Below, in pieces: positions 31,681 to 53,198 of a stretch of 64,000 nucleotides of DNA. The position numbers were made by a program, and so were the translations under genes. This DNA is from Nemertoderma westbladi (Eukaryota; Animalia; Xenacoelomorpha), in assembly GCA_032718475.1 (NCBI GenBank), contig JAUCBJ010001846.1, forward strand, positions 372,001 to 436,000. The letters are read 5' to 3'. The notes under the pieces were generated by a model. The model did no database searches. It saw only the letters and a program-made list of their open reading frames with translations, and was not told the origin of the DNA. Position 1 is the stretch's first letter; each line of letters starts with the position of its first letter.

Positions 31681-33081
31681 TTAAGGAAGTTGACTTAAAC
31701 TTTTACCATGCCAATAAAAATGAGAATAATTTTTATTTTTTTTATTTTTCAAAATCTTTTGCTTCATAACCCTAACAAATTCATCCAGGCCGTTTTTAAT
31801 TTGCGTTTGACCAGGTGTATTGTTTGAATCATCATGCGCCTCACTTAATATAATATTTTCATTATAAAGATTAACCAACCACTTGCTGTCAATAGAATTT
31901 TGATGATTACTCGCAGATTGAGCCTGTGTTGAATCACATGTTTCTGACAAACCCATCAAAACAGGCTTACTAGTTGCTGTGAGGAAAATCTCAGATATTA
32001 TTTGATATAACATGGCATCAATTGATGGTGTATTAATAGGCTTGCACACTTTTTGATCATTCGTTTGCAATTGCTTAAAAAGTGATAAAAGTTTCTGAGG
32101 CACATCATAAGTACTTTGATCAACTATATCATCATTAACTTTAATGTCAGTTATATCCTCAATAGGCTTTATGTCATCCTTATTATCCTGAGGTAGAACT
32201 TCTTGCTGTATTGTTTGGGCTTGTTCAATGGTTTCATCAGTTAAATCATTGTCCCCTGATCCAGAACTCCCAGAACTTGAACTCCCACTCCCTGAACTAG
32301 ATGATGATCCTGAACCCGAATCACTACACTTTTTACTATTACCGGGGTTGCTTGGATCACAGCCGTCTGGGTTGTTGCCGTGGCCGTTGTTGCCGTCGTT
32401 GTCAGTGGATGCGTCTTTGTTGTTTTTCTTAGCCCTTGATTCATATTTTGTTTGAAGGGTGGCTAAGTTTTGGAGGTTGATTTCGCCTGGGTGCTGGATT
32501 TTTCCATGTATTTGAATGCGATGGGCTTTTATTATTAAGTTGAATTGGCTATCTGTGCTAAGCCCGTTGGGGCTGATTGTGATTTCCCCATTTGTTTGTT
32601 GAAGGGGGCTAAATGGGTTGGATGTTGTTAGTAGTATGTCTTTTGTGTTGATGAAACCACACCCGTCACATTGGATACCGGAGGGGTTGATGATAATTAA
32701 TTCAGCTGAACTGCCTGCTATTTCAATGTTGCCTTGTAGTAAGGAGGGGTCAGGGCTTGTGATTTGATTAAGGATGATGTCAGCGCTTTTTTGAAGTTGG
32801 GAATTATGTTGAATGGGTAGGCCGTTTTTGGTTTGGGTATCGACCACGGCGTTGTTGAGAATAATGCCTTTTTTTGTGACGTGGAATTGTGAGTAGTGGT
32901 TGTGGCTGATGCCGTTTTGGTCTGGGTTTTGAATGTTGATGATGGTTTGTTGTGTGGTGTGTTTAACTTGGGTGTGTCGGTTGGATGGTTGGATGTTATT
33001 GGTGAATGATTTGTTGGAAATGATGGCGAGTAACACAAGTGTTGTGATGGTTTTTTTATTCAAAGTTATTGTCTGTATCAT
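31681..33081 (-). CDS. Short TpsA/filamentous-haemagglutinin-type exoprotein
   Basis: IINIQNPDQNGISHNHYSQFHV, ILNN, IILNQI, INPSGIQCDGCGFIN TPS domain; then GNNGHGNN motif, Ser/Gly linker and acidic C-terminal part. Confidence 0.85.
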   Translation of the reverse strand: MIQTITLNKKTITTLVLLAIISNKSFTNNIQPSNRHTQVKHTTQQTIINIQNPDQNGISHNHYSQFHVTKKGIILNNAVVDTQTKNGLPIQHNSQLQKSADIILNQITSPDPSLLQGNIEIAGSSAELIIINPSGIQCDGCGFINTKDILLTTSNPFSPLQQTNGEITISPNGLSTDSQFNLIIKAHRIQIHGKIQHPGEINLQNLATLQTKYESRAKKNNKDASTDNDGNNGHGNNPDGCDPSNPGNSKKCSDSGSGSSSSSGSGSSSSGSSGSGDNDLTDETIEQAQTIQQEVLPQDNKDDIKPIEDITDIKVNDDIVDQSTYDVPQKLLSLFKQLQTNDQKVCKPINTPSIDAMLYQIISEIFLTATSKPVLMGLSETCDSTQAQSASNHQNSIDSKWLVNLYNENIILSEAHDDSNNTPGQTQIKNGLDEFVRVMKQKILKNKKNKNYSHFYWHGKSLSQLP

Positions 33082-34998: not shown

Positions 34999-35616
34999 AT
35001 GAATACTTTACTCCCTCAAAATTCCACTAATCTAGAAGTAATCGTTGATCAAACAACCCGAGGACGTTTAGATGGTTTGCCTATCACGCCTAAACATAAC
35101 AAAAACCCATAGACCATTCCAGATCAACTCCTTCCATATCTTGCAAAAGAACTCAGTGTGGATTTTTGGAATGATGATTGGTCAGTTGAAAAGAAGCATT
35201 CTGTCATTTCTATATCAATTGATGCCCATCGTCATAAAGGCACAATGCATGCCGTACGCACTGCCCTTAATGCCATCAACACAGACATTGAAATCACAGA
35301 GTGGTTTGACCAAAACCCACTCTCTGATCCAAACACAATGCAGGTCACCATTCTTGCTAAAGAAGGCTTGAGTGATTCAGTGGTGGATGAAGTCAAGGCT
35401 ATTTTGGATACTACCAAACCCTTACATGTGCATTATGGAATTTCTTTTAAACAACTCTCAAGCGTTTTAATGAACTTAGCCAGTGCAGGAGTGATTCGTT
35501 TGAGAAAAAGTATTCAGGTAGCAAGCAAACTGTCTCACCAATTCCAAAATAACCTTAATATCTACCACACAGGTACTGGCAGGCAACGAATAAACGTAAC
35601 AGGAACCATCCAATGA
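34999..35616 (+). pseudogene. P2 gpI-like tail/baseplate protein with an in-frame TAG at 35110-35112
   Basis: MNTLLPQNSTNLE...NP*TIP..LLPYLAKELSVDFW..DW..EKK...HRHKGT..AV. Confidence 0.85.
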
Positions 35617-36485
35617 GCCAGATTATTTTTACACTCACCCAGGCAGGCATTAATGCCACAACTCAAAGCTCAGGCGTAAAGGCTGTTATCTCTCATATTG
35701 GTTTTGGAGCAGGGGATTATGTCCCCACAGGCACAGAGACAACACTGAGTGCCCAACAAGATTTTATCGCTATTACATCAGGTATTGATAATGGTGATCA
35801 AATTACCATTGAGGCTATCCTTTCAGGGAGCCAGAACTATTCCATCAAAGAGATCGGTATCTTTTTAGAGGATGGCACACTATTTGCCATTTATTCTCAC
35901 CCAACTAACACCATTGCTTATAAAAGTGCAGGGACAGATTTTCAGTTTGTTTACACATTAACCCTGAGCGGTGTTAACACGGATAACGTTACCTTAAATG
36001 TATCTGCCTTTGGAGAAGCAACCCTTCAATCACACATTCAAAATATTGCCAACCCCCACAACATCACACCAAGTCAAATAGGGGCTGCGAGTCAAACTGA
36101 TTTGGATACTACCAATACACAGCTCACCGACTTAATTAACAACCCATCGGCTACACGAACAGAGACTGTTTTATTTACATCCACTGGTGGTGCTAAATCT
36201 GGAAGCATTGCAAACTGGAATACCTATAACTACTTAGAATTTTTACTGACAGGTAATTACGAACTGTTTAGTATTAAAACCGAACATATTGAGGTGGGCA
36301 CTGCACGTAACTTTATCTCCACCCTAAGTGGCCATTTTCACAGCTCATCACGCATTACCATAGGCAGCGATAACACCTTTAACTTATCTGATGGCTACAG
36401 CCAAAACTACATCACAGGGCAAAATTATGACAATACCGCAGGTGTGCATAGCATTAGTAAAATCATTGGAGTGAACCATGGGTAA
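35613..36485 (+). CDS. Short tail fibre protein (P2 gpH-like N-terminus)
   Basis: LTQAG, IKEIGIFLEDGTLFAI, H...NPHNITPSQIGA. Confidence 0.8.
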   Translation: MSQIIFTLTQAGINATTQSSGVKAVISHIGFGAGDYVPTGTETTLSAQQDFIAITSGIDNGDQITIEAILSGSQNYSIKEIGIFLEDGTLFAIYSHPTNTIAYKSAGTDFQFVYTLTLSGVNTDNVTLNVSAFGEATLQSHIQNIANPHNITPSQIGAASQTDLDTTNTQLTDLINNPSATRTETVLFTSTGGAKSGSIANWNTYNYLEFLLTGNYELFSIKTEHIEVGTARNFISTLSGHFHSSSRITIGSDNTFNLSDGYSQNYITGQNYDNTAGVHSISKIIGVNHG

Positions 36486-36939
36486 TTATCAATTTATTTA
36501 TAACCAAGCGGGTGAGTATATTGATTTACGCTGTCCTGATGATATCGGAAAACCTGTTGAAGGTTCCATTATCATCACTCTTGAAAACCCCACAGCTGAT
36601 CAACTCAAACACCCCGATCACTACAAACCTAATGAAGATCAAACCAACCTCATTCCAAGACACACCGAGTCAGAGAAAAGAGGTATCCTTTTCTCCCAAG
36701 CCAAAACTCAACTGACCTTTTTACTCAAACAACACCAAAACCAAGCAGCCATTACCCATGATTATTTAGGCATTGATCAAGCTATACAGCTGGATCAACA
36801 GTTTAAAAACTGGGCGATTGATTGCAGAGAAAAATCCATTGCAATCAAAACCGATGTTCTTTCAGGAAAAATTGATCTTCCCGATGAAAAAACATTTATT
36901 AACGCCATGCCTAAAATAGAGGATTACCTCAATGAATAA
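36478..36939 (+). CDS. Probable tail fibre assembly/accessory protein
   Basis: Position after fibre; C-terminal W...C....P....FI..MP pattern. Confidence 0.5.
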   Translation: MGNYQFIYNQAGEYIDLRCPDDIGKPVEGSIIITLENPTADQLKHPDHYKPNEDQTNLIPRHTESEKRGILFSQAKTQLTFLLKQHQNQAAITHDYLGIDQAIQLDQQFKNWAIDCREKSIAIKTDVLSGKIDLPDEKTFINAMPKIEDYLNE

Positions 36940-37132
36940 CCCAATCACTTATACATTCACCGAACTTTCAAACCCCATTGAAATTGATTTATCCAGTGTT
37001 CAAGGTTTTTACAAACAAAACACCCGTCCAACCATTCGTTTTGTGATTGAGACAACGGGCGGTGAATATCAATTTAGTGTTTCAACTAAAACCAGAGGTT
37101 CAACTTGGGGAAAAGTTAAAACAAAAGATTAA
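36932..37132 (+). CDS. Hypothetical phage protein
   Basis: Overlap-coupled ORF in the tail operon. Confidence 0.5.
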   Translation: MNNPITYTFTELSNPIEIDLSSVQGFYKQNTRPTIRFVIETTGGEYQFSVSTKTRGSTWGKVKTKD

Positions 37133-37156
37133 TCAAACCAACAAAGGAGAAACAAC

Positions 37157-38311
37157 ATGACATACATTCACGGCATCCAATCCCTTGCCACACAATCAGG
37201 CACACGTTCAATTAAAGAGCAATCAACATCTTTGATCTGTATATTAGGTACAGCCCCTAAAGCCGATGCAACCAAATACCCACTAGATGCACCCGTATTA
37301 ATCAACGCAGCAAGCAATAGAGATCACGCCTTGCTTGGAAGCACAGGCACCCTACCTAAAGCAGTTGATGGCATCCGCGATCAAATCGGTGCAAAGGTCT
37401 GTATTATCCGAATAGATCACTCAGGTACACCAGCTGAACTTCAAAGCCGAGCATTAGAAAAAACACAACTCATCCGTGGGGTAGAGTCTGTTGTGGGAGA
37501 GAAACCAAAAATACTGATTGCACCTAGCTTTCTAACGATCACAACCGATGCTGCTAATCCTGTCATCACAGAAATGTTGAGTATTGCTGAAAGTCTGCGC
37601 GCTTTTGTGATTGCAGATGGACCCAATATCACCAATACCGATGCCATCCAAGCACGAAACCATTACGGCAGCAAACGTCTTTTGATTGTTGACCCAGGTG
37701 TGAAAGTCTGGGACACAAAAACCGACTCTTGGCTTAACGAATTTGCATCACCCAGAATTGCAGGCTTATTTGCTAAAAATGATGCTGAAAGATCAGCCTT
37801 TCATACGCCATCCAATATGCTGATTACAGGCATCGGTGGAACAACACGCCCCATTCAATACGCTACATCCGATTCAAACTCTGAACACAACCTTCTAAAC
37901 AAAAACCAAATCGGCACCATTGTAAACGCAAATGGTTATCGGTTTTTGGGGACTGATACCTGTGATATTACAGACTCGAACAACCGCTTTATCAACTCAA
38001 TTCGAGGCGCTGACGCCATCGATGATGCACTCGAATCTGGCATCCAGTGGGCACTGGATCGAAACATCACCCAAACATTCATTGATGATGTCACCACATC
38101 AATTCAAGGCTATCTTGAAAACAGAATTGCTCAAGGGGATTTACTGCCAGGTTCTAAGATCACAGCCGACCCAGAACTCAATACTCAAACTGCCTATTCC
38201 AATGGCCAAGTGTATTTTAATTATGACTACGCCACCCCAACCCCTGCTGTGCATATCACGATCAAGCGTCAAGTGAATTATGACCTAGCCAAGGGTATTT
38301 TTAACCTGTAA
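37157..38311 (+). CDS. Tail sheath protein (P2 FI-like)
   Basis: YIHGI, GTLPKAVDGI.DQ, PKILIAP, SPRIAGL.AK.D, PSN; strong RBS. Confidence 0.95.
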   Translation: MTYIHGIQSLATQSGTRSIKEQSTSLICILGTAPKADATKYPLDAPVLINAASNRDHALLGSTGTLPKAVDGIRDQIGAKVCIIRIDHSGTPAELQSRALEKTQLIRGVESVVGEKPKILIAPSFLTITTDAANPVITEMLSIAESLRAFVIADGPNITNTDAIQARNHYGSKRLLIVDPGVKVWDTKTDSWLNEFASPRIAGLFAKNDAERSAFHTPSNMLITGIGGTTRPIQYATSDSNSEHNLLNKNQIGTIVNANGYRFLGTDTCDITDSNNRFINSIRGADAIDDALESGIQWALDRNITQTFIDDVTTSIQGYLENRIAQGDLLPGSKITADPELNTQTAYSNGQVYFNYDYATPTPAVHITIKRQVNYDLAKGIFNL

Positions 38312-38350
38312 TTAAACACGCATTAAACAATACTTAAAAGGAGAACAATC

Positions 38351-38857
38351 ATGAGTAAACAACAAGTCGGTCAACTATTTCGTTTAAGCGTTGATGGTTT
38401 TGGTTTCGCAGGCAGCTGTAAAGATGTTAAACCACCCAAAATTTCTAAAAAGATGGAAAGCTACCGAGGGGGTGGTATGGGTGGTGAGATTGAAATTCCT
38501 GTGGGCATTGAAATGGACGCACTGGAGTTTACCCTAACCGAGATCGTACCCAATGTGCTTAAGCGATTTGGCTTTGTGCAAGGCTCGGATAAACCCTTTA
38601 CCCTACGCTGTGCCATTGTTGATGATACAGGCAAAACACTCGCTCATCGCTATGAGGTGGGTGGGATACTCAAAGAGATTGACCCGGGTTCAATTGAGGC
38701 AGGCAAAATTATAGAGCGAAAGTTTTCAGTGAGTCCCAGAAGCTTTAAAGAATTTTTAGCAGGCGAGCCACTCATCCACATTGACCTAGAAAAAGGCATT
38801 GAGGTGATCGGTGGGGTGGATAGATTGGCTGATGCAAGAAGTGCTGCTGGGATTTAG
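38351..38857 (+). CDS. Tail tube protein (P2 FII-like)
   Basis: PKI..KMESYRGGGM, IGGVDRLA..R.A.G. Confidence 0.93.
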   Translation: MSKQQVGQLFRLSVDGFGFAGSCKDVKPPKISKKMESYRGGGMGGEIEIPVGIEMDALEFTLTEIVPNVLKRFGFVQGSDKPFTLRCAIVDDTGKTLAHRYEVGGILKEIDPGSIEAGKIIERKFSVSPRSFKEFLAGEPLIHIDLEKGIEVIGGVDRLADARSAAGI

Positions 38858-38858
38858 G

Positions 38859-39257
38859 ATGAAAAACATAGAGCTATTTAATCAAGCCACCGCTGAAATT
38901 TTATCAGGTTTGTATAGTCAGTTTCCAAATCCTATCTCTTTTAATGCCATGAAGATGTCAGGGTGTCAGGAGATTAACGATTATGGACATCCTGTGGATA
39001 AATTGGGCAATGAATCCAAAACCTTTACGACCATCAACAATACCATTAAGTGGCTAGCTGATGAAGGTTATATCAAAGGCGAGAAAGACGGCTATGGCAT
39101 TTCATTTACAACACTGACCCAAAAAGGTCTTGATGCAATGAATAAAATTCCTGAAGCACTAAACACCAAGCAAAGCTTAGGTGTGCGACTTCAAAAGTTT
39201 ATTGCAGCAGGCGCCAAAGAATTAACCAGCGAGACTATTAAACAAATTTTAACTTAA
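38859..39257 (+). CDS. Hypothetical winged-helix-like moron protein
   Basis: NIELF...ILSGLY..FP, TIKWLADEGYI, LTQKGL; not a standard tail gene. Confidence 0.6.
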   Translation: MKNIELFNQATAEILSGLYSQFPNPISFNAMKMSGCQEINDYGHPVDKLGNESKTFTTINNTIKWLADEGYIKGEKDGYGISFTTLTQKGLDAMNKIPEALNTKQSLGVRLQKFIAAGAKELTSETIKQILT

Positions 39258-39267
39258 GGAGAAAGCG

Positions 39268-39534
39268 ATGAACAACCAAAAACACACCATCACACTCACC
39301 CATCCTGTGGCGTTTGAGGGGGAGACGATAACAACACTTCAAATGAAACCACCCATCGTCAAATACATCATTACCGCACAATCCTTAGGTGCAACCGATG
39401 CTGAACGTGAGGTACATATCATGGCAGCCCTTACCGAACAACCCTCTGACATGATTGAGCAATTACATATGGCAGATTACATGAAACTACAAGGGCAGTA
39501 CCAGGATTTTTTAGCCTCAAGCCCAGCGACATAG
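39268..39534 (+). CDS. Tail assembly chaperone (P2 gpE-like)
   Basis: ITLTHPV..EG..IT.L.M..P.V...L...DY.KLQ..Y..FL. Confidence 0.85.
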   Translation: MNNQKHTITLTHPVAFEGETITTLQMKPPIVKYIITAQSLGATDAEREVHIMAALTEQPSDMIEQLHMADYMKLQGQYQDFLASSPAT

Positions 39535-39668
39535 GCATGGCTGTTGTAGCCATTGCCGATACCACCAGTTGGGCTAAAAAAGAATTATTAGAACTAACAG
39601 TTAGCGAGCTTGTATTTTGGAGCGAACAAATTCAAAAGTTTCAAGCACTGAAACATAGACCAAGCTAG
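39506..39668 (+). CDS. gpE' extension via programmed -1 frameshift at T TTT TTA
   Basis: -1 frame reads IA....W...EL.EL...EL.FW, typical of GpE'; stop TAG 39666-39668. Confidence 0.8.
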
Positions 39669-39825
39669 CCAAAAAAAATACAGGTAGGCATAAGAAACCC
39701 AAAACCACCGACCCCACAACAACTAAAGGATCGAAAAAAAACAACCCGTCAGAAAATGAATAAAAGATTAGATAACACCCTAAAAAATAAGCTGTTATGA
39801 AAACCTTATCACTGGGTATTGTCAT
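39601..39825 (-). CDS. Small antisense membrane protein (moron)
   Basis: Two hydrophobic segments; fills the E'-tape measure gap on the opposite strand. Confidence 0.5.
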   Translation of the reverse strand: MTIPSDKVFITAYFLGCYLIFYSFSDGLFFFDPLVVVGSVVLGFLCLPVFFLASLVYVSVLETFEFVRSKIQAR

Positions 39826-41722
39826 CGGCGCATCCTTAGGGGCTAGTTTTAACAAAAGCTTTCAAAGCACAACCGAAAAAATTGGTGCGCTTTCAAAAAG
39901 CATAGCATCCACTAATATTAAATTCCAAGCCACCAAAGATGTTATTAAGTATCAAAAACTCCTAAAAACACTTCGTGATAAACAAAAAATACTAGGTACA
40001 AGCAACAAACAACTGGCACGTGGAATTAAAGATGTTGAGAAACGCTATAAACAATCCAAACAGGCAGCTAAAAGCTATGGCATCCAAATTGGACAAGTCG
40101 TTGCTCAAAACAACAAACTTGAACGAAGCCTTCATCAGCTAGCGCGCAAACAAAAAAGATTACAAAACTTAGAGAAATCCAAACAACGCTTATCCAATGC
40201 CAAGGGAAGTTTTCTAGGGCTTTTAGGAGTAGGGTATGCAGCACATCGCATTGGTCAAAACGCCATAACGCATGATGATGCAACCATCCGCCTTAAAACC
40301 GTGGTTGATCCAAAATCGTTTGAAAAAGCCAAACAATTTGCAAGAGATTATAGTAAAACCCATCTAGGAACTGAAACACAAATCATCAACATTCAATACG
40401 CGCTTAACTCAGCAGGCTTAAGTGCTGATGCGGCGATGATTGGCGCAACCGTTGTGGAGAAAGTAGCAAAAGTTACAGGTGGCGTGGGTGAATCTGTGGG
40501 TGAGATCATCGGGATTGTTTATAACAATATGGCAGGCTCTATTGAGGGCAAAACAAAAGAAAAACTAGAGCGAATTGGCGATGTCCTCACCCAAACACAA
40601 CTTAAATTTCAAATCAGAGATTTTTCTCAGTTAGGTGAATCCATGGCCAAGGGTGCCAAAGGGGCCATCAAATATAAAGTTGGTTTAGAGCAAACCGCAG
40701 CCGCGCTAGGGCAACTCAACACCTCAGGTGTACAAGGCTCCCTTGCAGGCACCGCCTTTAATGCCATTTTACGGCAAATGAGCAAAGCAGCTGATGAGCT
40801 GGGTTTTTCCATTGTGCGAGGGGCAAATGGCAACATGGATTTTATCCAAACCATTAAAAACTTAAAACAAAGTATTAGCTTTACCGATGATATTGATGAG
40901 CGAGCTGGTATTATTCAAGACGCTTTTGGTGATGAAGGGGGTGCGATCTCCATTTTGATCGATAACCTGGGAAAATTAGAGTCTAATTTTCAGTATGTAG
41001 CCAAATCTCAAGGCGTGGTTAATAAAAACTACGATTACTTTTTAAAAGGCAAAGGGGCGCCCCTTCGGCAATTTGCCAAAAACATGCAACTGGTCGGCAC
41101 CGCCTTCGCTGAAACCTTGCTTCCGCCCATGAATGCTGTTTTAAAGCCATTGGGTAAAATTGCGGTTTGGACGGCTGAGGCAGCACAAAATTACCCTGTT
41201 ATCACAAAACTCATAGGTGGCATTTCCACAGGTTTTATATTGTACAAAGCGGGTGCGCTCCTTGCGGCAGCGGCTAGCTGGGCGTTTAACGCAGCGCTTG
41301 TGGCTAATCCAATCGGGCTAATTGTGGCAGGCATCGTGACAGCGGCAACACTTATTTATACCTATTGGGAGCCAATCGCTGGCTTTTTTAAAAAGCTTTG
41401 GAACGGCATTAAAAATACTTTCTCATCAGGGTTTGCATGGATTGGAAAAACCATTAAAAGCATGACATCTTGGTTGCCTGACTGGCTAGTTGGAAATGAT
41501 GATTCAAACCAATCTTCAAACAAGCTTCATCAGGCAGCAAAAAGTGTGGCAAAATCCTCAAGCATTAAAAATACCAACACCACCAACCACCTAAACGCCC
41601 CTATTACCATCCATGCTGCCCCTGGTATGAATACACAGCAGTTAGCTAATCAAGTACAAAACTCTATATCACAACCCTTTAGTGATTTAAATAACACCCA
41701 ACTCGATGACCCCGACCTATGA
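39797..41722 (+). CDS. Tail tape measure protein (TP901-type core)
   Basis: LGQL..SG.QGS.AGTAF..IL, ANPIGLIV.GI..AA.LIY.YWEPI. Confidence 0.92.
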   Translation: MKTLSLGIVIGASLGASFNKSFQSTTEKIGALSKSIASTNIKFQATKDVIKYQKLLKTLRDKQKILGTSNKQLARGIKDVEKRYKQSKQAAKSYGIQIGQVVAQNNKLERSLHQLARKQKRLQNLEKSKQRLSNAKGSFLGLLGVGYAAHRIGQNAITHDDATIRLKTVVDPKSFEKAKQFARDYSKTHLGTETQIINIQYALNSAGLSADAAMIGATVVEKVAKVTGGVGESVGEIIGIVYNNMAGSIEGKTKEKLERIGDVLTQTQLKFQIRDFSQLGESMAKGAKGAIKYKVGLEQTAAALGQLNTSGVQGSLAGTAFNAILRQMSKAADELGFSIVRGANGNMDFIQTIKNLKQSISFTDDIDERAGIIQDAFGDEGGAISILIDNLGKLESNFQYVAKSQGVVNKNYDYFLKGKGAPLRQFAKNMQLVGTAFAETLLPPMNAVLKPLGKIAVWTAEAAQNYPVITKLIGGISTGFILYKAGALLAAAASWAFNAALVANPIGLIVAGIVTAATLIYTYWEPIAGFFKKLWNGIKNTFSSGFAWIGKTIKSMTSWLPDWLVGNDDSNQSSNKLHQAAKSVAKSSSIKNTNTTNHLNAPITIHAAPGMNTQQLANQVQNSISQPFSDLNNTQLDDPDL

Positions 41723-42114
41723 GCCTTGCTACCTTAGGTACTTTTAGCTTTAACATCAATCAAACCAGCTTTGAAAGCTTAAAGCGAAGCGCAACATTTA
41801 GACACCCACAACAACAGGTCATCAACACACATCCTGTCAGTCAATTTGTAGGCGTTGGCGAACAAAACATAATGCTTGCAGGAACCCTCTATCCTGAACA
41901 TACAGGTCGTCTGCATGATGTCTCCACCCTTCGAGAAATGGCCAAAACAGGTAAACCTCAACCTTTGCACATCACCTATTTAACTTCCAGCGAGGTATTA
42001 GGGTTTTGGGTGATTACAGGTATTGATGAGGAGCAAACCTATTTTCACCAAAATGGCCAACCTCGTAAAATCACCTTTAGTATTGAACTTCAATATTACG
42101 GAGACCAAGCGTGA
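41719..42114 (+). CDS. P2 gpU-like tail protein
   Basis: LG.FSF, QFVGVG, LAG.LYP, G.WVI..I.E, PRKI.FSI.L. Confidence 0.9.
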   Translation: MSLATLGTFSFNINQTSFESLKRSATFRHPQQQVINTHPVSQFVGVGEQNIMLAGTLYPEHTGRLHDVSTLREMAKTGKPQPLHITYLTSSEVLGFWVITGIDEEQTYFHQNGQPRKITFSIELQYYGDQA

Positions 42115-42314
42115 ATACTTACACGACAAAACAAGGCGAGCGATTGGATCAAATTTGCCAAGCCTACTATGGTTCACAAAGTGGTGTATTAGAGCAGGTA
42201 CTACTTGCGAATCCAAATTTAAGTGATCTGCCGCTTGTTTTACCTGAAGCCACTGTGATTGCTCTTCCAACAATCAGTGCACAAAAACCAAATAAAACAA
42301 CAGAACTATTTTGA
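42111..42314 (+). CDS. P2 gpX-like tail protein
   Basis: T.QG..LD.IC..YYG...VL.ANP.L...LP. Confidence 0.9.
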   Translation: MNTYTTKQGERLDQICQAYYGSQSGVLEQVLLANPNLSDLPLVLPEATVIALPTISAQKPNKTTELF

Positions 42315-43276
42315 AACCAGATTTTAAGATTGAGTCAAATGATGTGGATATCACCTCAACTATTAAGCCTTACTTGACACGTTTAGAACTTAAAGATGAA
42401 TCAGGTTTTAAAAACGACAGCCTAACCCTCACGATAGCTAATCCTAAAAACCATTTTAAACTACCGAATCGGGGTAAAGACTTAACAGTGTCACTTGGCT
42501 ATGATGGTGATTTGGTGAAAAAAGGATCATTTGAGGTGAGCGATATTAAATTGACTAGCCCACCTGATACACTCACTATCCTTGCAGTAGGCGCTAAGAT
42601 CAACGCGTCACTGAAGATCAAACACACCCAAACCTTTACAAACATCGCCCTAGGTGATCTGGTGAGTCAGATTGCGTTAAAAAACAGCATGAAAGCAAGT
42701 GTTAGCACTGCTTTTCAAGGCGTTAAAATTGATCACATCAACCAAACCAACCAATCGGATCAACACTTTTTAGCTGAACTTGCAAAGCGTTTTGATGCTA
42801 GGTTTAAACCCCTATCCAACCACTTACTTTTTTACAAACAAGATGATTTTAAAAGCGTTTCAGTGGAAGCACTCATACCCATTATTATTAATCAAACCGA
42901 CTGCACCCGATTTGAGTTTAACCTCACAGACCGCCCTAAATACCAAAGCGTCAAGGCGTTGTGGTGGGATTTAGATGCAGCACAATCCAAACAGGTTATT
43001 GTTGGCAACGGCGAACCAGCCTATACCTTAAGCGCTGAGTACGCAACTGAGGTTGAAGCTAAACAACATGCACAGTCCAAATACAATCAATTACAACGCC
43101 AAACTGTCACGGGTACGGTGGATTTTTTTGGTAATGCGAATTTGGCTGGGGAGTTTGAGGTTAAGTTGCTTGGGTTTTCACAAGACTTACCTAAGCGCTT
43201 TAAGGTGGAAAGTTGTGTACATATAATGGATGGAAGTGGATACAAAACAAACGCAAAAATTGTGATGAAAAAATGA
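42311..43276 (+). CDS. P2 gpD-like baseplate hub/late control protein
   Basis: D..G..D.L.L, LGY, PPD.L.I, IDHINQTNQSD.HFL..LA.R.DA. Confidence 0.9.
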   Translation: MKPDFKIESNDVDITSTIKPYLTRLELKDESGFKNDSLTLTIANPKNHFKLPNRGKDLTVSLGYDGDLVKKGSFEVSDIKLTSPPDTLTILAVGAKINASLKIKHTQTFTNIALGDLVSQIALKNSMKASVSTAFQGVKIDHINQTNQSDQHFLAELAKRFDARFKPLSNHLLFYKQDDFKSVSVEALIPIIINQTDCTRFEFNLTDRPKYQSVKALWWDLDAAQSKQVIVGNGEPAYTLSAEYATEVEAKQHAQSKYNQLQRQTVTGTVDFFGNANLAGEFEVKLLGFSQDLPKRFKVESCVHIMDGSGYKTNAKIVMKK

Positions 43277-43695
43277 AACACACCTTCTACCTAATCATCA
43301 CCCTATTACTCATCACCCAACCAAGCCAAGCGGCCTACCCAGATATTCAGGTTGAAAAACTGATATCTGTGTATGACGGAGACACCTTTAAAATAGATAT
43401 TGCAAACTGCCCACTTATTATCTTTCAAAATATCGCGGTACGAATCAATGGCTTGGATACACCAGAAATTAGAACGAAATGCATTGGGGGGAAGAATTTA
43501 GCTAAACAAGCTAGAGGCGTGTTGAAAAACCTTTTGCAAAACGCCCAGCTCATTACCCTTAAAAACCCCAAGCGAGGTAAATATTTTAGAATCATCGCCG
43601 ATGTGTTTGCTGATCAAATTAGGGTATCTGATGTATTGATCAATCAGGGTTTAGGTAGACCATATGCGGGAGGTAAAAGAAGGTCATGGTGTTAA
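43273..43695 (+). CDS. Thermonuclease (SNase) family protein with signal-like N-terminus
   Basis: VYDGDT, VRINGLDTPE, GKYFRI.ADV, Y.GG.R..WC. Confidence 0.9.
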   Translation: MKHTFYLIITLLLITQPSQAAYPDIQVEKLISVYDGDTFKIDIANCPLIIFQNIAVRINGLDTPEIRTKCIGGKNLAKQARGVLKNLLQNAQLITLKNPKRGKYFRIIADVFADQIRVSDVLINQGLGRPYAGGKRRSWC

Positions 43696-43731
43696 TAGGT
43701 TAACTGGATATTTTCGCATATAAACCGCTAC

Positions 43732-44145
43732 TTAATTTTTAAGGGAACGACTTTCTCGAACCATTAAATCAATGGGCTCACCATGGGTATAGCTCAAATT
43801 AGCCAACAAAGACTTGAAAGATGCAATATCACTCTTATTCTCATACAGCCGAACACGAATAAAATAATACTTTTCTTGAAATGCATCAGATGCCGCTTTA
43901 AGCGCAGTGTGTGCAAATTCATCTTTACTTTGTGCCTGTGGTGCAACAATCACAATCTCAAGCTTAGTTTTATCTGCGTCAAACACACTTTGATCTATCA
44001 CTTTATAAGACTTTGCCTGGCTTAAATTTATCTCTGGAAAAGATGGTTGATTTATCACATCAACAACAAGAGCCAACACAAACAAAACACCCAAACCAAT
44101 TAAAATCAGCTTGTTAACTGACTCGCGTTTTTCAATATTTTTCAT
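43732..44145 (-). CDS. Membrane-anchored hypothetical protein co-oriented with the repressor
   Basis: N-terminal TM helix; abuts repressor stop codon. Confidence 0.6.
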   Translation of the reverse strand: MKNIEKRESVNKLILIGLGVLFVLALVVDVINQPSFPEINLSQAKSYKVIDQSVFDADKTKLEIVIVAPQAQSKDEFAHTALKAASDAFQEKYYFIRVRLYENKSDIASFKSLLANLSYTHGEPIDLMVRESRSLKN

Positions 44146-44898
44146 TTACAACTTCTTCACATTCAACACAACCCGACCAATAATCTTCACCTCATCAATC
44201 GTTTTTTCATCTAAAAAATACGAATCATATTCTTTGTTATCTGAAATTACCTTAACGCTTTTATTAATTTGAGATTGCAGCCGCTTCACATGCAAAGCAT
44301 CACCTACGCGCAATACATAAATGCCATCACTCACCACATTATTAATGGATCGATCAATTAAAATTGGGTCATTGGGTTGCAAGGTGGGCATCATGCTATC
44401 CCCTGTCACATAAAGCATGGATAAGTTTTTAGGGTTGATCCCAAGTTCCTGACGAATATAGGTCTCGCTAAGCTGTATTGAGCCATGGCGTTGTTCATTT
44501 TCAACAAGGGTTCCAGTCCCAGCAGAGGCGTGGACATCGTAGATGGGGATGGGGTAGGTTGATTCTTTCAAATACGAACCATGGTTCTTATTTGTTTCAG
44601 GTTTTAAGATTTCGCTATTATTTGATTTTTCTACTTTCTGAACTATTGAGCCAATTTTATTCATAAAACCGGCATTGATCTTGGGAAACTTGCCTAAAAA
44701 TTCATTTTCTATATCTTCTGGAAAAATCTTGGAATATTCTGTTAGAATTTTTACCTTAACAGCAATCAGACCTCTTTCCAGATCATAAATTTTTTGAGGC
44801 TTCCAGCCTAAATTATCCGCTAAATCTTTAGCACTATAACCATTTTTTATTCTGATATTCTTTAGCTTTTCAGCAGCTTTTTGATCCTCTATCTTCAT
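44146..44898 (-). CDS. Prophage CI-like repressor (HTH + S24 peptidase)
   Basis: HTH; ASAGTG cleavage site; GDSM.PTL; VKRL; IIGRV. Confidence 0.93.
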   Translation of the reverse strand: MKIEDQKAAEKLKNIRIKNGYSAKDLADNLGWKPQKIYDLERGLIAVKVKILTEYSKIFPEDIENEFLGKFPKINAGFMNKIGSIVQKVEKSNNSEILKPETNKNHGSYLKESTYPIPIYDVHASAGTGTLVENEQRHGSIQLSETYIRQELGINPKNLSMLYVTGDSMMPTLQPNDPILIDRSINNVVSDGIYVLRVGDALHVKRLQSQINKSVKVISDNKEYDSYFLDEKTIDEVKIIGRVVLNVKKL

Positions 44899-44952
44899 TT
44901 TTCCAAAAATTTTATAAATAAGTGTTGACTTATTTTCCAATAATTTTATAAT
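44899..44952. promoter_or_regulatory. Immunity region: 19-bp direct repeats overlapping the early promoter
   Basis: TTTTCCAAAAATTTTATAA (44899) / TTTTCCAATAATTTTATAA (44933); TTGACT 44925 and TATAAT 44947. Confidence 0.7.
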
Positions 44953-50112: not shown

Positions 50113-50543
50113 TGTTTGCAAGCAAGCCCAAATACATGCAACTGATTGCCATCGCTAAAAACAAAGTGGGTGTTTGTGATGACGATCACCGCGCCATACT
50201 CAAACGATTTGGGGCGAAGGTTAAAGACGGGCGCATTAGTGCCACAACGCTTACTATTTGGCAGCTTGCAAAGGTTTTAGATCACTACAAAAAAACAGGC
50301 TTTCAGGTGGTGCAAAAACCCGCCCAACAAAGCACCCTACAGCACCCACAAGTTCAAAAAATCATTGCCCTTTGGAATGATCTTTTCAAACAAAAAAAGA
50401 TTAACAACCATTCAATTAAATCACTTAACGGCTGGATCAAACGCCAAACAGGCCTCAAAACAATTGATAAACTTACCCAAGATAAAAAAGCACTTCACCA
50501 AACAATTGAATCGCTGAAAAAATGGAAAACCCGATCAATCTAG
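50112..50543 (+). CDS. GemA (Mu gp16/DUF1018) regulatory protein
   Basis: I.IAK..G..DD..R..L, GF, KI.ALW..L, IESLKKW. Confidence 0.85.
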   Translation: MFASKPKYMQLIAIAKNKVGVCDDDHRAILKRFGAKVKDGRISATTLTIWQLAKVLDHYKKTGFQVVQKPAQQSTLQHPQVQKIIALWNDLFKQKKINNHSIKSLNGWIKRQTGLKTIDKLTQDKKALHQTIESLKKWKTRSI

Positions 50544-51010
50544 GCGGTTTAGAGCATATTGATATCAAGCGTCTGCCACCTCAAATTAAACAATTAATTC
50601 AATTAATTGGCATTACCCAAACCTATCATTTTTTAAAAGCCTTTGGGGGCAAGCGCTTAAACATCCCCAAAACCATCACCCGCTTTGACCACCCAATCGC
50701 CTTGGTGATTGGAATGGACGATTCCAATATTTTGTGCAACAGCTATTGGCATCAAATGCAAATAGAGGTACCCTCCTTTAACACGCTACTTCATAGCCTG
50801 CGCGTGAGCTTAATTTGTGCGGATCACCCAGCGCTTTCAATTAATGAGTTGGTGGAAAAATACCACCTCACCCATAAATATATTCGTAACATCCTAAACC
50901 AATGCCCCAAGTGCACACCAAACCCAGCCTCAACAATCACAAAAACGCCACAGCTTGATCTTTTTGAGGCTGAGGTGGTTTTGGGTGATGGGAGAAAGAA
51001 AGGGGTTTAA
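50522..51010 (+). CDS. Mor/C-like transcription activator
   Basis: LP.....LIG......FGG..L.IP; C-terminal HTH SINELV.KY.LT...IRNIL. Confidence 0.8.
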   Translation: MENPINLGGLEHIDIKRLPPQIKQLIQLIGITQTYHFLKAFGGKRLNIPKTITRFDHPIALVIGMDDSNILCNSYWHQMQIEVPSFNTLLHSLRVSLICADHPALSINELVEKYHLTHKYIRNILNQCPKCTPNPASTITKTPQLDLFEAEVVLGDGRKKGV

Positions 51011-51266: not shown

Positions 51267-51652
51267 ATGAATAATATTCAAATCTTTCATTTTAATAAGC
51301 TAACCGTTCGGATTATTAACGATAATCTTGATGAACCTTTATTTGTTGCTTTTGATGTGGCAACTGCTCTAGGGTATGCTAAACCTGAAAACGCAGTGAG
51401 ACGTCACTGCAACAAAGCGACACCCCACCCAAAACAGGGGGTGGTTTTTACATGCTGATACCTGAGCCTGACGTGTATCGTTTAATTATTCGATCCAATT
51501 TACAATCAGCTCAAGCTTTTTCAGACTGGGTATTTGAACAGGTACTTCCCCAAATCAGAAAAACAGGCGGATTTTGTAAATTAGAGAAATTATTCATTAG
51601 TTCTTTAAGGTTTTTCTCATTAAAAACGAGTGGAGTGGTTGAGTTAGTATAG
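51267..51652 (+). pseudogene. Bro-N antirepressor-like gene, frameshifted at G5 (51437-51441) and truncated
   Basis: F.F....VR...EP.FVA.DVA.ALGY / IPEPDVYRLI.RS...A..F.DWV.E.VLP.IRKTG in two frames. Confidence 0.85.
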
Positions 51653-51726
51653 TTATTGGTCGTATTAATATCCCTACCTGCTTGTTGGTTATTGTTACCC
51701 GTAATTGATTGATTGCTCTTAACCAT
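51511..51726 (-). CDS. Protein with N-terminal QSITGNNNQQAGRD motif, probably truncated
   Basis: ATG overlaps the upstream stop (ATGGTTAA); runs into the antisense strand of Bro-N after about 50 codons. Confidence 0.55.
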   Translation of the reverse strand: MVKSNQSITGNNNQQAGRDINTTNNYTNSTTPLVFNEKNLKELMNNFSNLQNPPVFLIWGSTCSNTQSEKA

Positions 51727-51772
51727 TAAGATCCCTACCTGCTTGTTGGTTATTGTTACCCGTAATTGATTG
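51670..51772. repeat. Perfect 42-bp direct repeat, period 61 bp
   Basis: ATCCCTACCTGCTTGTTGGTTATTGTTACCCGTAATTGATTG at 51670-51711 and 51731-51772. Confidence 0.97.
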
Positions 51773-51895
51773 TCGATTAGTGTTTGTTGTTTTTCGCTTT
51801 TGCCAGCCCCGTATTCCAAGGCAGGCTGCAATAATTGCTAGAACAGAACCAATCAACGCAACCCAAGGATTAATATTGCTTAAATATTCCAACAT
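51719..51895 (-). CDS. 58-aa single-TM protein with C-terminal QSITGNNNQQAGRD motif (below ORF-track cutoff)
   Basis: MLEYLSNINPWVALIGSVLAIIAACLGIRGWQKRKTTNTNRQSITGNNNQQAGRDLNG*; TATAAT on the minus strand at 51926-51931. Confidence 0.7.
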   Translation of the reverse strand: MLEYLSNINPWVALIGSVLAIIAACLGIRGWQKRKTTNTNRQSITGNNNQQAGRDLNG

Positions 51896-51962
51896 CAGTT
51901 TTTCAAATTTTTTAATAGTCAGTTTATTATATCTTAATCAATATTTAGTTTTAGACTTTTCT

Positions 51963-52031: not shown

Positions 52032-53198
52032 ATGTTAGATAACTTCATCGAAATATTTAAAACAGGCAAACACACCGACTCTTCAGGAAACCAAAAAATT
52101 TGGACAGATGTCGATGTTCAAGAATTTATTGATAACCACAACCAAAATCAATCTGCACCTATTGTGGTTGGTCACCCCAAGTTCAATCAAGATACCTACG
52201 GTCAGGTCGATCAACTTCAATTTAAAAACGGTGTGTTATCCGCCACCTTTAAAAACATCGACCCCACCTTTGAAAAAATAATCCAATCAGGCGAGATCAA
52301 AAACCGATCCATCCGAGCCAAAAAAACACCCAAAGGCTGGATGTTAGATCATGTGGGGTTTTTGGGCGCAAGTGCGCCTGCTATCTCCGATCTAGCTCCG
52401 ATGTTTCAGGCCAAAGCCAATTGCCTAGATTATGCCTTTGATTTTGAGACTCAAACAAAAGCTCAAACCGATCATCAAAACACCCAATCCTTTGAACTTG
52501 ATGCCTCAAAAACCAACGTCTGGCGATTTAAAAATGGGATAGAAGCCATCCGATCCATCTTAGGAAATGTTCGTGATTTTCTCATTGAAAAACATGGGCT
52601 TAAAACAGCCAAGGAGGTGATTGGTGATTTTGATTTAGAACAAATAGCCAATGCAAAAGAATCACTGATAGAGAAAGAAGCTGACTACCAACAAACAAAT
52701 AAAGAACAAAAACAACAAGCACAAGGAGAAAAAAGCATGACAGAAACAACGAAACCCACCTTTAACCAAGCCGATATCGACAAAGCGAAAGATACCGCTA
52801 GACAAGAGGCACAAGCTGAATTCAATCAACAAATTCAAACCGAACAACACAAACGGCTTGCGATTGAATCCAAACAAGCCATTGACCAATTAATAACAGA
52901 TGGCAATATCACCCCCGCCCAAGCAACAGGTATGAGCGAGTTTATGGGTCATTTAGATGAGAGCAAAACCTATTCATTTGCACAAAATGATCAAACCCTT
53001 CAAACCAATCCAAAACAGTGGTTTATGGATTTTGTAAAAACACTTAAATCAGGTGTGGAAACCAACCAAGCGCTGGAAGATTCCGGTGAAACCCAAGCAG
53101 AATTTAGTGCCCAACAAATCGCTGAATATGCCAAAGCGCATAACACAGACCCTGTCACCGCACTTGAAAACTTAAAAAAGGAGAACAACCATGCATAA
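52032..53198 (+). CDS. Mu gpI-like prohead protease with nested scaffold (internal ATG 52737)
   Basis: IEIFKTGKH.D, APIVVGHP, RS, L.HVGFLGA..PAI..L; in-frame AAGGAG-ATG. Confidence 0.88.
   Translation: MLDNFIEIFKTGKHTDSSGNQKIWTDVDVQEFIDNHNQNQSAPIVVGHPKFNQDTYGQVDQLQFKNGVLSATFKNIDPTFEKIIQSGEIKNRSIRAKKTPKGWMLDHVGFLGASAPAISDLAPMFQAKANCLDYAFDFETQTKAQTDHQNTQSFELDASKTNVWRFKNGIEAIRSILGNVRDFLIEKHGLKTAKEVIGDFDLEQIANAKESLIEKEADYQQTNKEQKQQAQGEKSMTETTKPTFNQADIDKAKDTARQEAQAEFNQQIQTEQHKRLAIESKQAIDQLITDGNITPAQATGMSEFMGHLDESKTYSFAQNDQTLQTNPKQWFMDFVKTLKSGVETNQALEDSGETQAEFSAQQIAEYAKAHNTDPVTALENLKKENNHA

Follow-up and report, generated by a model that had tools for sequence, protein, structure and literature searches.

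A putative Lamassu deletion remnant with a duplicated amyloid-like motif in a Mu-like prophage, and its enzyme-less four-gene relatives

Introduction

In Lamassu systems, LmuBC sequesters monomeric LmuA and binds DNA ends; LmuA is released and tetramerises via its C-terminal domain (CTD) (PMC12663957; 10.1101/2025.06.23.660979). One group, clade O, was described as 'effector-less' in PMC12663957, its members having an enzyme-less LmuA together with intact lmuC and lmuB; in the available part of that publication no effector is offered for the clade and no upstream gene is mentioned. In BASS pairs the same motif is found at the C-terminus of an effector and at the N-terminus of its partner, the two being encoded by collinear overlapping genes, and the BASS1 motif forms cross-beta fibrils in vitro (Dyrka et al., 10.1101/2020.01.06.895854). 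Anti-phage amyloid signalling with abortive infection was proven for Bab/Agp (BASS11) from a prophage hotspot of E. coli ECOR25, where clustering of the sensor converts the shared motif on a membrane-targeting effector (10.1101/2024.11.07.622273).

The window (the whole stretch of 64,000 nucleotides analysed here) contains two small overlapping genes, ORF1 and ORF2, which share a motif and which an earlier note had interpreted as a candidate module of prion-like signalling or defence. Presented here are the features of this pair, the identity of its second gene, its prophage context, and a set of relatives in which the same motif accompanies an intact Lamassu core.

Repeat and overlapping genes

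The pair is encoded on the minus strand, antisense to the phage genes as stated earlier, and is AT-rich (GC 0.336 vs 0.43 for the phage). ORF1 (58 aa, 51719..51895, minus strand) is a predicted membrane effector composed of one hydrophobic helix, a basic linker and a C-terminal motif; a transmembrane helix was predicted by model at residues 10-31 (51803..51868, minus strand), with a best 19-residue hydropathy of 2.28. Five basic residues are located on the C-side of this helix, so the ORF1 motif is predicted to be cytoplasmic. ORF2 (71 aa, ATG at 51726, 51511..51726, minus strand) overlaps ORF1 by 8 nt and is read as a truncated enzyme-less lmuA (motif plus first CTD12 helix); from about residue 52 onward it is the antisense of an antirepressor gene.

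A direct repeat (51664-51711 and 51725-51772) with 47 of 48 nt identical and a period of 61 spans the overlap, and its exact 42-nt core (51670-51711 and 51731-51772) is the sole exact repeat of at least 30 nt in the window. The core encodes QSITGNNNQQAGRD, found at residues 42-55 of ORF1 (motif copy 1, 51731..51772, minus strand) and at residues 6-19 of ORF2 (motif copy 2, 51670..51711, minus strand), and the perfect 42-bp repeat of 61-bp period and the motif placement claimed earlier were both recovered in this way. The flanks of the two copies do not form a tandem unit. In contigs from the probable source sequencing run, which is not independent of the window, the 42-mer was covered to a depth of 60, twice that of its flanks (30), and the site of the presumed deletion (see below) was inside a single unbranched contig, which speaks against an assembly artefact.

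Regarding the TATAAT promoter attributed to the pair, the hexamer itself is present (51926..51931, minus strand) 30 nt 5' of ORF1 as a possible -10 element without a consensus -35; the promoter scan did not call it, and no good -35 was seen at 17 nt upstream. The AGRD codons of ORF1 (51728-51742, minus strand) form a purine-rich, Shine-Dalgarno-like stretch 6 nt 5' of the ORF2 ATG, which may couple translation of the two genes.

A word search with ORF1 gave no candidate and no close homologue, and no meaningful match was obtained for ORF1 or ORF2 in Pfam, PADLOC, NCBIfam or PHROGs. In the Atlas comparison the best value for ORF2 was an uninformative 0.76, while ORF1 reached 0.90-0.91 to unnamed clusters of 60-72 aa, which is a lead only.

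Identity of the second gene

Residues 31-50 of ORF2 (TPLVFNEKNLKELMNNFSNL, 51577..51636, minus strand) align with the start of CTD12 and were assigned to the first helix of this ABC-3C domain by a 20-column profile and by alignment. With the 20-column matrix they ranked first of the 46,832 20-mers of the window (14.1 bits vs 1.3 for the next). The CTD12 profiles applied to the window were built only from 50 long nuclease-type LmuA proteins, none of which has the motif, because circularity with the motif was to be avoided; the 50 were drawn from the 120 listed of 205 passing CTD12 matches, obtained with a search profile that contained the window fragment. The CTD12-like segment is at offset 18 from the motif Asp, the offsets in relatives being modally 17-20 (range 13-27). 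With the whole-domain CTD12 HMM the ORF2 frame came first of 2,514, but at an E of 0.52, and its score was reached by 1 of 2,000 shuffles. The CTD12 evidence in the window comprises 20 residues, with no Pfam match for ORF2. The end of ORF1 (AGRD-x-NG-stop with an 8-nt overlap) recurs in the Leptospira bin L053.

An AlphaFold model of one enzyme-less CTD12 relative had a pLDDT of 80 (about 50 for the N-terminal motif), and the top two of 48,161 solved chains compared with it were LmuA, with weak Z scores of 4.8 and 4.1, an rmsd of 4.4 and about 110 aligned residues. Foldseek with the same model yielded nothing below E 0.001, the best hit being a YydD-YydB model (E 0.04), and neither LmuA nor LmuB came up when solved structures were searched by sequence.

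As judged from its sequence, the window pair is in all likelihood a truncated CTD12 Lamassu cassette. Among the partners guessed at earlier, the ABC-three-component type is the one that applies, in the form of a CTD12-type LmuA, and the supposed loss of the C-terminal domain of the second gene is borne out, only the first CTD12 helix being left.

Prophage context and deletion

The surrounding region is a Mu-like prophage. Left of the cassette are a transposase, an AAA ATPase, Gam, GemA and a Mor-like regulator (50522..51010, plus strand; a weak match below the curated cut-off); on the right are the head maturation protease as the first late gene (52032..53198, plus strand), the major head protein, terminase and portal. 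Adjoining the cassette is a Bro-N antirepressor gene (51267..51575, plus strand; Pfam Bro-N 2-39 and 65-96 in two frames; PHROG anti-repressor), which is frameshifted near 51450 and cut at the junction. The frameshift of the antirepressor (51267-51652, plus strand) falls within a run of G that also serves as an arm of a hairpin resembling a terminator (51425-51444).

The antirepressor profile matches reach no further than residues 39-47 of the second piece (near 51575), after about 35-60% of the profile lengths, and the CTD12 likeness ends at ORF2 residue 50 (51577, minus strand). Both ends would be accounted for by one deletion between convergent genes: near 51575, lmuC and lmuB appear to have been lost along with some 130 codons of lmuA and the terminal part of the antirepressor; from the ends of the profile matches, the inferred junction between antirepressor (plus strand) and lmuA (minus strand) was placed at 51572..51580. 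When three LmuB and three LmuC sequences from relatives were run against the 64-kb window by tblastn (E up to 1), no remnant of lmuB or lmuC was detected, and the scans gave no phage closely related to that of the window in which the cassette is intact.

By its gene content the window cassette is likely to be without sensing. The copy is probably inert, as it would not sense phage and the oligomerising CTD is gone as well; losing the CTD along with lmuBC would have made the remnant harmless, which fits the fact that it persists. Since the sensor genes and most of the CTD are missing from the window, the pair is unlikely to be a working two-gene module of the kind proposed in the earlier note, and no evidence was found for the superinfection exclusion also suggested there.

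Tail fibre, sheath, tube, tape measure and late-control genes are located left of the repressor (about 35100-43700, plus strand, and 43732-44940, minus strand), and head and baseplate genes right of the early genes, an arrangement that would fit two tandem prophages or a Mu-like prophage with an uncommon gene order. A 466-aa ORF (31681-33081, minus strand) close to the prophage genes on the left has a filamentous haemagglutinin N-terminal domain and is short for the family.

Intact relatives

Relatives were found by scans with ORF2 and with the motif pattern. Intact systems have the order helix+motif gene, motif+CTD lmuA without enzyme, lmuC and SMC-like lmuB, i.e., a small first gene, an LmuA of 170-200 aa in which the motif is followed by the CTD and the N-terminal enzymatic domain is absent, a further small gene and an ATPase of 570-640 aa. 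Pfam assigned CTD9, CTD10 or CTD12 to the second protein, MC5/6/8 to the third and DUF2326/AAA_23 to the fourth, which PADLOC called LmuB or PDC-M68B.

A helix+motif gene was present directly 5' of lmuA in 15 of 15 distinct enzyme-less loci vs 0 of 19 enzyme-bearing loci, and in all seven enzyme-less systems reached through the CTD, not the motif pattern (Fisher p = 5e-10 or 1.5e-6, for loci that are not phylogenetically independent and of which several are kin). The 15 enzyme-less systems, those for which upstream sequence was available, have CTD10 (L002, L013, L014, L059), CTD12 (L021, L045, L049, L053, L068, L069, L071) or CTD9 (L024, L039, L084, L085); eight were reached by motif-containing patterns and seven (L013, L014, L068, L069, L071, L084, L085) by CTD patterns or full-length tblastn. 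Near-identical loci were counted once (L001-L003, L061-L063 and refetches as L002). There were 20 enzyme-bearing loci (L065-L067, L070, L072-L083, L086-L089), of which L072 has no upstream sequence, hence 19. Plasmid matches were opened for 3 of 23 and 6 of 8. The homologous gene pairs for which a search had been suggested earlier were in this way found in every enzyme-less system examined.

In a census of short CTD12 proteins, for which the search profile contained the motif, the motif was N-terminal in 58 of 70 by regular expression (about 8 more by eye) and in none of 50 nuclease-bearing proteins (from 120 listed of 205); four short CTD12 proteins without the motif (P0098, P0113, P0125, P0127) were seen among the matches listed. 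lmuB was present in 14 of the 15 motif systems, the remaining one (L021) stopping at a contig edge, and consists of two ORFs in L045. The Walker A lysine was found in 14 lmuB heads of motif systems. For the middle genes in L024 and L069, Pfam gave no match at the thresholds applied. According to their records, the hosts are Bacillota, Spirochaetota, Thermodesulfobacteriota and Alpha-, Beta- and Gammaproteobacteria, and the carriers include phages, plasmids and a Tn7 element. In a tree built from 28 LmuB heads (none was obtained for 3 of 31 loci) the motif systems fell into three groups; the tree requires 3 label changes, 2 of them forced by starred branches, with the direction not given and the bootstrap not settled.

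The helix+motif proteins, 53-96 aa long, have a hydrophobic helix besides the motif, although the hydrophobicity of this helix is weak in L084 (Ensifer adhaerens; 1.62) and L085 (Microvirga lotononidis; 1.45). Basic residues number at most one before the helix in 15 of 17 small genes and two to seven after it in all 17, so the tag is predicted to be cytoplasmic. The first helix of several small effectors has a character that we take to recall the 'MEPIS' helix of Bell/Hell proteins. Regarding L069 (NZ_CP147979.1, Alteromonas macleodii pKD01), a motif-type Lamassu is carried as Tn7 cargo, with a divergent NNSV-type tag lacking AGRD on a longer membrane protein of 89 aa; three of its proteins are recorded as WP_159120576.1, WP_159120577.1 and WP_338853894.1, and its middle gene is unannotated.

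Random genome samples contained CTD12 in 1 of 399 scored genomes, namely the seed genome, and in 3 of 400, each time of the nuclease type; motif-type CTD12 was thus not encountered in the genomes searched and seems rare. No match was obtained in viral contigs with the exact back-translated motif or a CTD9 query, in plasmids by tblastn of ORF2 or a CTD10 protein, or in phage records by tblastn of a CTD12 protein.

Co-variation, composition and occurrence of the motif

The mean motif score was 60.7 for cognate vs 38.6 for non-cognate combinations, a value as high being reached in 0 of 20,000 permutations. The cognate motif ranked first in 10 of 15 systems and poorly in L045 (10th) and L049 (5th), and cognate pairs exceeded 1,000 shuffles of the partner in 16 of 16 cases. 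Divergent variants drift jointly within the pairs of L013, L014, L069 and L084. The same codon is used at only 110 of 190 identical residues in the 16 pairs outside the window, from which conservation at the protein level follows; the outliers are the window (15/15) and L059 (13/14 identical residues), where recent homogenisation is suggested. Adjacent collinear motif pairs (n=17) have gaps of -32 to +16 nt. The pairing of an effector C-terminal with a partner N-terminal motif, which the earlier note had recognised in a single pair, accordingly holds across phyla and co-varies within pairs.

The motif is enriched in Q, N, G and I/V and depleted in K, P and L, which matches the composition bias of BASS in the available description by Dyrka et al. 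(10.1101/2020.01.06.895854). QAGRD occurs at least 1,146 times in the BASS data file of PMC8086366 (cross-validation copies included), and 14 of the 14 occurrences listed belong to cluster C01, which was taken to be BASS1 because of its cluster size (numbering to 210). By comparison with C01 sequences by eye, the window motif resembles the BASS1 QAGRD family. A RHIM-like or BASS3 identity, which the earlier note had read into AGRD, was rejected on this assignment of QAGRD. BASS11 was likewise considered and rejected, as the residues given for it in the available text (I87-G88-S89-V90, Q92, D99, N100; 10.1101/2024.11.07.622273) do not fit the QAGRD pattern.

A genome scan with the motif gave 44 loci, of which 32 were dropped: 12 haemagglutinin-like, 9 acetyl-CoA synthetase-like, 7 off-frame and GC-rich, and 4 other (5 were Pfam-checked). 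The 12 with the hexapeptide in haemagglutinin repeats were recognised by reading, and 4 of 4 were confirmed by Pfam.

The motif also occurs in other settings. No partner was visible for the tag in L027 and L037. At L032 (2090-2905, minus strand) and L055 (2354-3010, plus strand) the helix, the tag and a C-terminal domain without a name are joined in one protein. Genes just after phage repressors carry the tag without a helix+tag partner at L005 (3521-4210, minus strand), L040 (2381-2890, plus strand; with a zinc ribbon and a C-terminal hydrophobic stretch), L082 (2458-2793, plus strand) and L083 (2431-2793, plus strand). In the Bacteroidetes locus L016 (2279-4363, plus strand) a helix+tag gene is followed by one whose product has a start resembling a signal peptide, then the tag and ten TPRs; this may be a periplasmic form of the pair. 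Phage-borne helix+tag genes at L007 and L008 (4047-4250 and 2930-4069, minus strand) have as their partner a protein of the LPO_1073/Vpar_1526 family with the tag at its start, which suggests that this family is a defence sensor.

Comparison with known systems

The relatives share with Lamassu/ABC-3C systems of the short type (LmuA-LmuC-LmuB; DdmABC) a CTD9/10/12 lmuA, a middle component and an SMC-like ATPase in the usual order, and their domains are those of enzyme-bearing LmuA (CTD12 of the Mrr-type nuclease, CTD9 of the hydrolase). They differ in that LmuA has a tag of roughly 20 residues in place of an enzyme and that an extra upstream gene encodes a one-helix protein with the same tag; the window copy differs further in the absence of lmuC, lmuB and most of the CTD. 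An enzyme-less LmuA with intact lmuC and lmuB is also what the available part of PMC12663957 describes for clade O, a likeness of architecture; as the motif systems fall into three LmuB groups, they may be wider than clade O.

With the BASS1 Bell/NLR pairs the present ones have in common the motif placement, the collinear overlap, the composition bias and the QAGRD core, as far as these are described in the available parts of 10.1101/2020.01.06.895854 and PMC8086366. In contrast to the NLR (NB-ARC/NACHT) of BASS1, the partner here is an LmuA adaptor (elsewhere TPR or LPO_1073), the effector has a single helix and no Bell (or TIR, CHAT or hydrolase) domain, and most of the hosts are unicellular. 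When the motifs are compared by eye, Gly and Gln are closer by one residue than in BASS1, and the motif is N/Q-rich rather than R-V-Y. Bab/Agp, as presented in the available text of 10.1101/2024.11.07.622273, is similar as a prophage-borne pair with a shared motif, a non-NLR sensor and a small membrane-targeting effector (here predicted). It differs in its sensor (Agp, TPR-GreA/B-PIN) and in the five-helix Babybell domain of Bab; the helices that hide the toxic helix of Bab are absent from the one-helix effector.

The system is apparently an undescribed Lamassu variant that would work like BASS pairs, and not a member of BASS1-11 as defined. No Lamassu/ABC-3C system with an amyloid or prion tag was found in the literature covered, which includes few subscription journals; Krishnan et al. 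2020 (the ABC-3C definition) may mention the architecture.

Proposed mechanism and alternative explanations

The reading preferred here, with moderate confidence, is that the window pair is the deletion remnant of a four-gene Lamassu cassette whose intact kin kill infected cells by tag-to-tag templating. Its parts differ in strength: LmuA and the membrane protein are very probably coupled physically via the tag; cross-beta templating between the tags would, by analogy, be probable; and the one-helix membrane protein is, again by analogy, a likely candidate for the killer. By their sequences, intact relatives consist of helix+tag, tag+CTD lmuA, lmuC and lmuB; of these the window retains the helix+tag gene and some 50 codons of lmuA. 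From what is published on Lamassu, LmuBC would keep LmuA monomeric, sense phage DNA ends and free LmuA to form a CTD tetramer. By analogy with NWD2/HET-S and Agp/Bab, the clustered N-terminal tags would then seed a cross-beta fold and convert the cytoplasmic tags of the membrane protein, and the stacked tags would cluster the helices, damage the membrane and abort the infection. The window copy would sense no phage, the CTD also being lost. As to the off-state of a permanently exposed helix, nucleation may be the only barrier, which is a guess.

The alternative that survives best, itself unlikely, is that the tag is a small docking element of a few beta-rungs which tethers LmuA to the membrane via the one-helix protein, a bounded complex being the active form, with no self-propagating amyloid. 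Such docking would suit the single proteins in which helix, motif and domain are joined (L032, L055), and the same hexapeptide is found in haemagglutinin repeats, which form bounded beta-helices. The published LmuA oligomers are tetramers, according to the available texts (PMC12663957; 10.1101/2025.06.23.660979). However, the position, collinear overlap, length and composition of the tags fit those of BASS pairs as far as described, and BASS1 yields cross-beta fibrils.

It is improbable that the membrane protein acts as a brake or decoy by capping the LmuA tags, the toxic species being an LmuA polymer or another tag-bearing protein of the genome. The protein is small and without a recognisable toxic domain, and the motif is found on other kinds of protein as well (TPR in L016, LPO_1073 in L007/L008); however, it occupies the effector position of Bab and Bell proteins (upstream gene, C-terminal motif), has a conserved hydrophobic N-terminal helix, and corresponds to the protein that is the killer in the tested analogues, according to the available text (10.1101/2024.11.07.622273).

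A still functional two-gene remnant, whether it acts in superinfection exclusion or is an effector that a different tagged sensor of the host sets off in trans, has a similarly low probability. ORF1 is intact, and the identity of the motif copies at 15 of 15 codons could reflect recent homogenisation, but the sensor genes and the oligomerising CTD are missing from the window, and the frameshifted and cut state of the adjoining antirepressor suggests local decay. That the repeat is a local DNA duplication which fell by chance into two small ORFs and has no meaning at the protein level is largely refuted and hardly credible, since, despite the 100% identity of the window copies over 42 nt, unlike most relatives, and the lack of a close ORF1 homologue by word search, the pairing recurs in 15 systems of several phyla with synonymous differences and co-variation, and the copy flanks are not a tandem unit.

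Implications

Under the preferred reading of tag-to-tag templating, the broken window copy matters only as a pointer to intact systems. The broader proposition, for and against which the case is about evenly balanced, is that Lamassu of at least three LmuB lineages exchanged their enzyme for a BASS1-like amyloid tag, the SMC DNA-end sensor signalling by prion-like templating to a single helix plus tag. If true, this exchange would explain 'effector-less' Lamassu and so address an explicit gap in the published work, namely a Lamassu clade that lacks an effector. No smaller killer under amyloid control would be known than the single helix plus tag. At some 60 residues it would define a minimal effector, of a kind that annotation pipelines overlook or label as hypothetical, and its gene could be plugged in as an effector by other sensors (TPR, LPO_1073). 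Bacterial amyloid signalling would be widened beyond the NLR and TGP sensors of mainly multicellular bacteria to unicellular hosts of many phyla as well as to phages, plasmids and the cargo of a Tn7 element. The sensing of DNA ends by SMC proteins and signalling by amyloids, immune designs so far separate, would be united.
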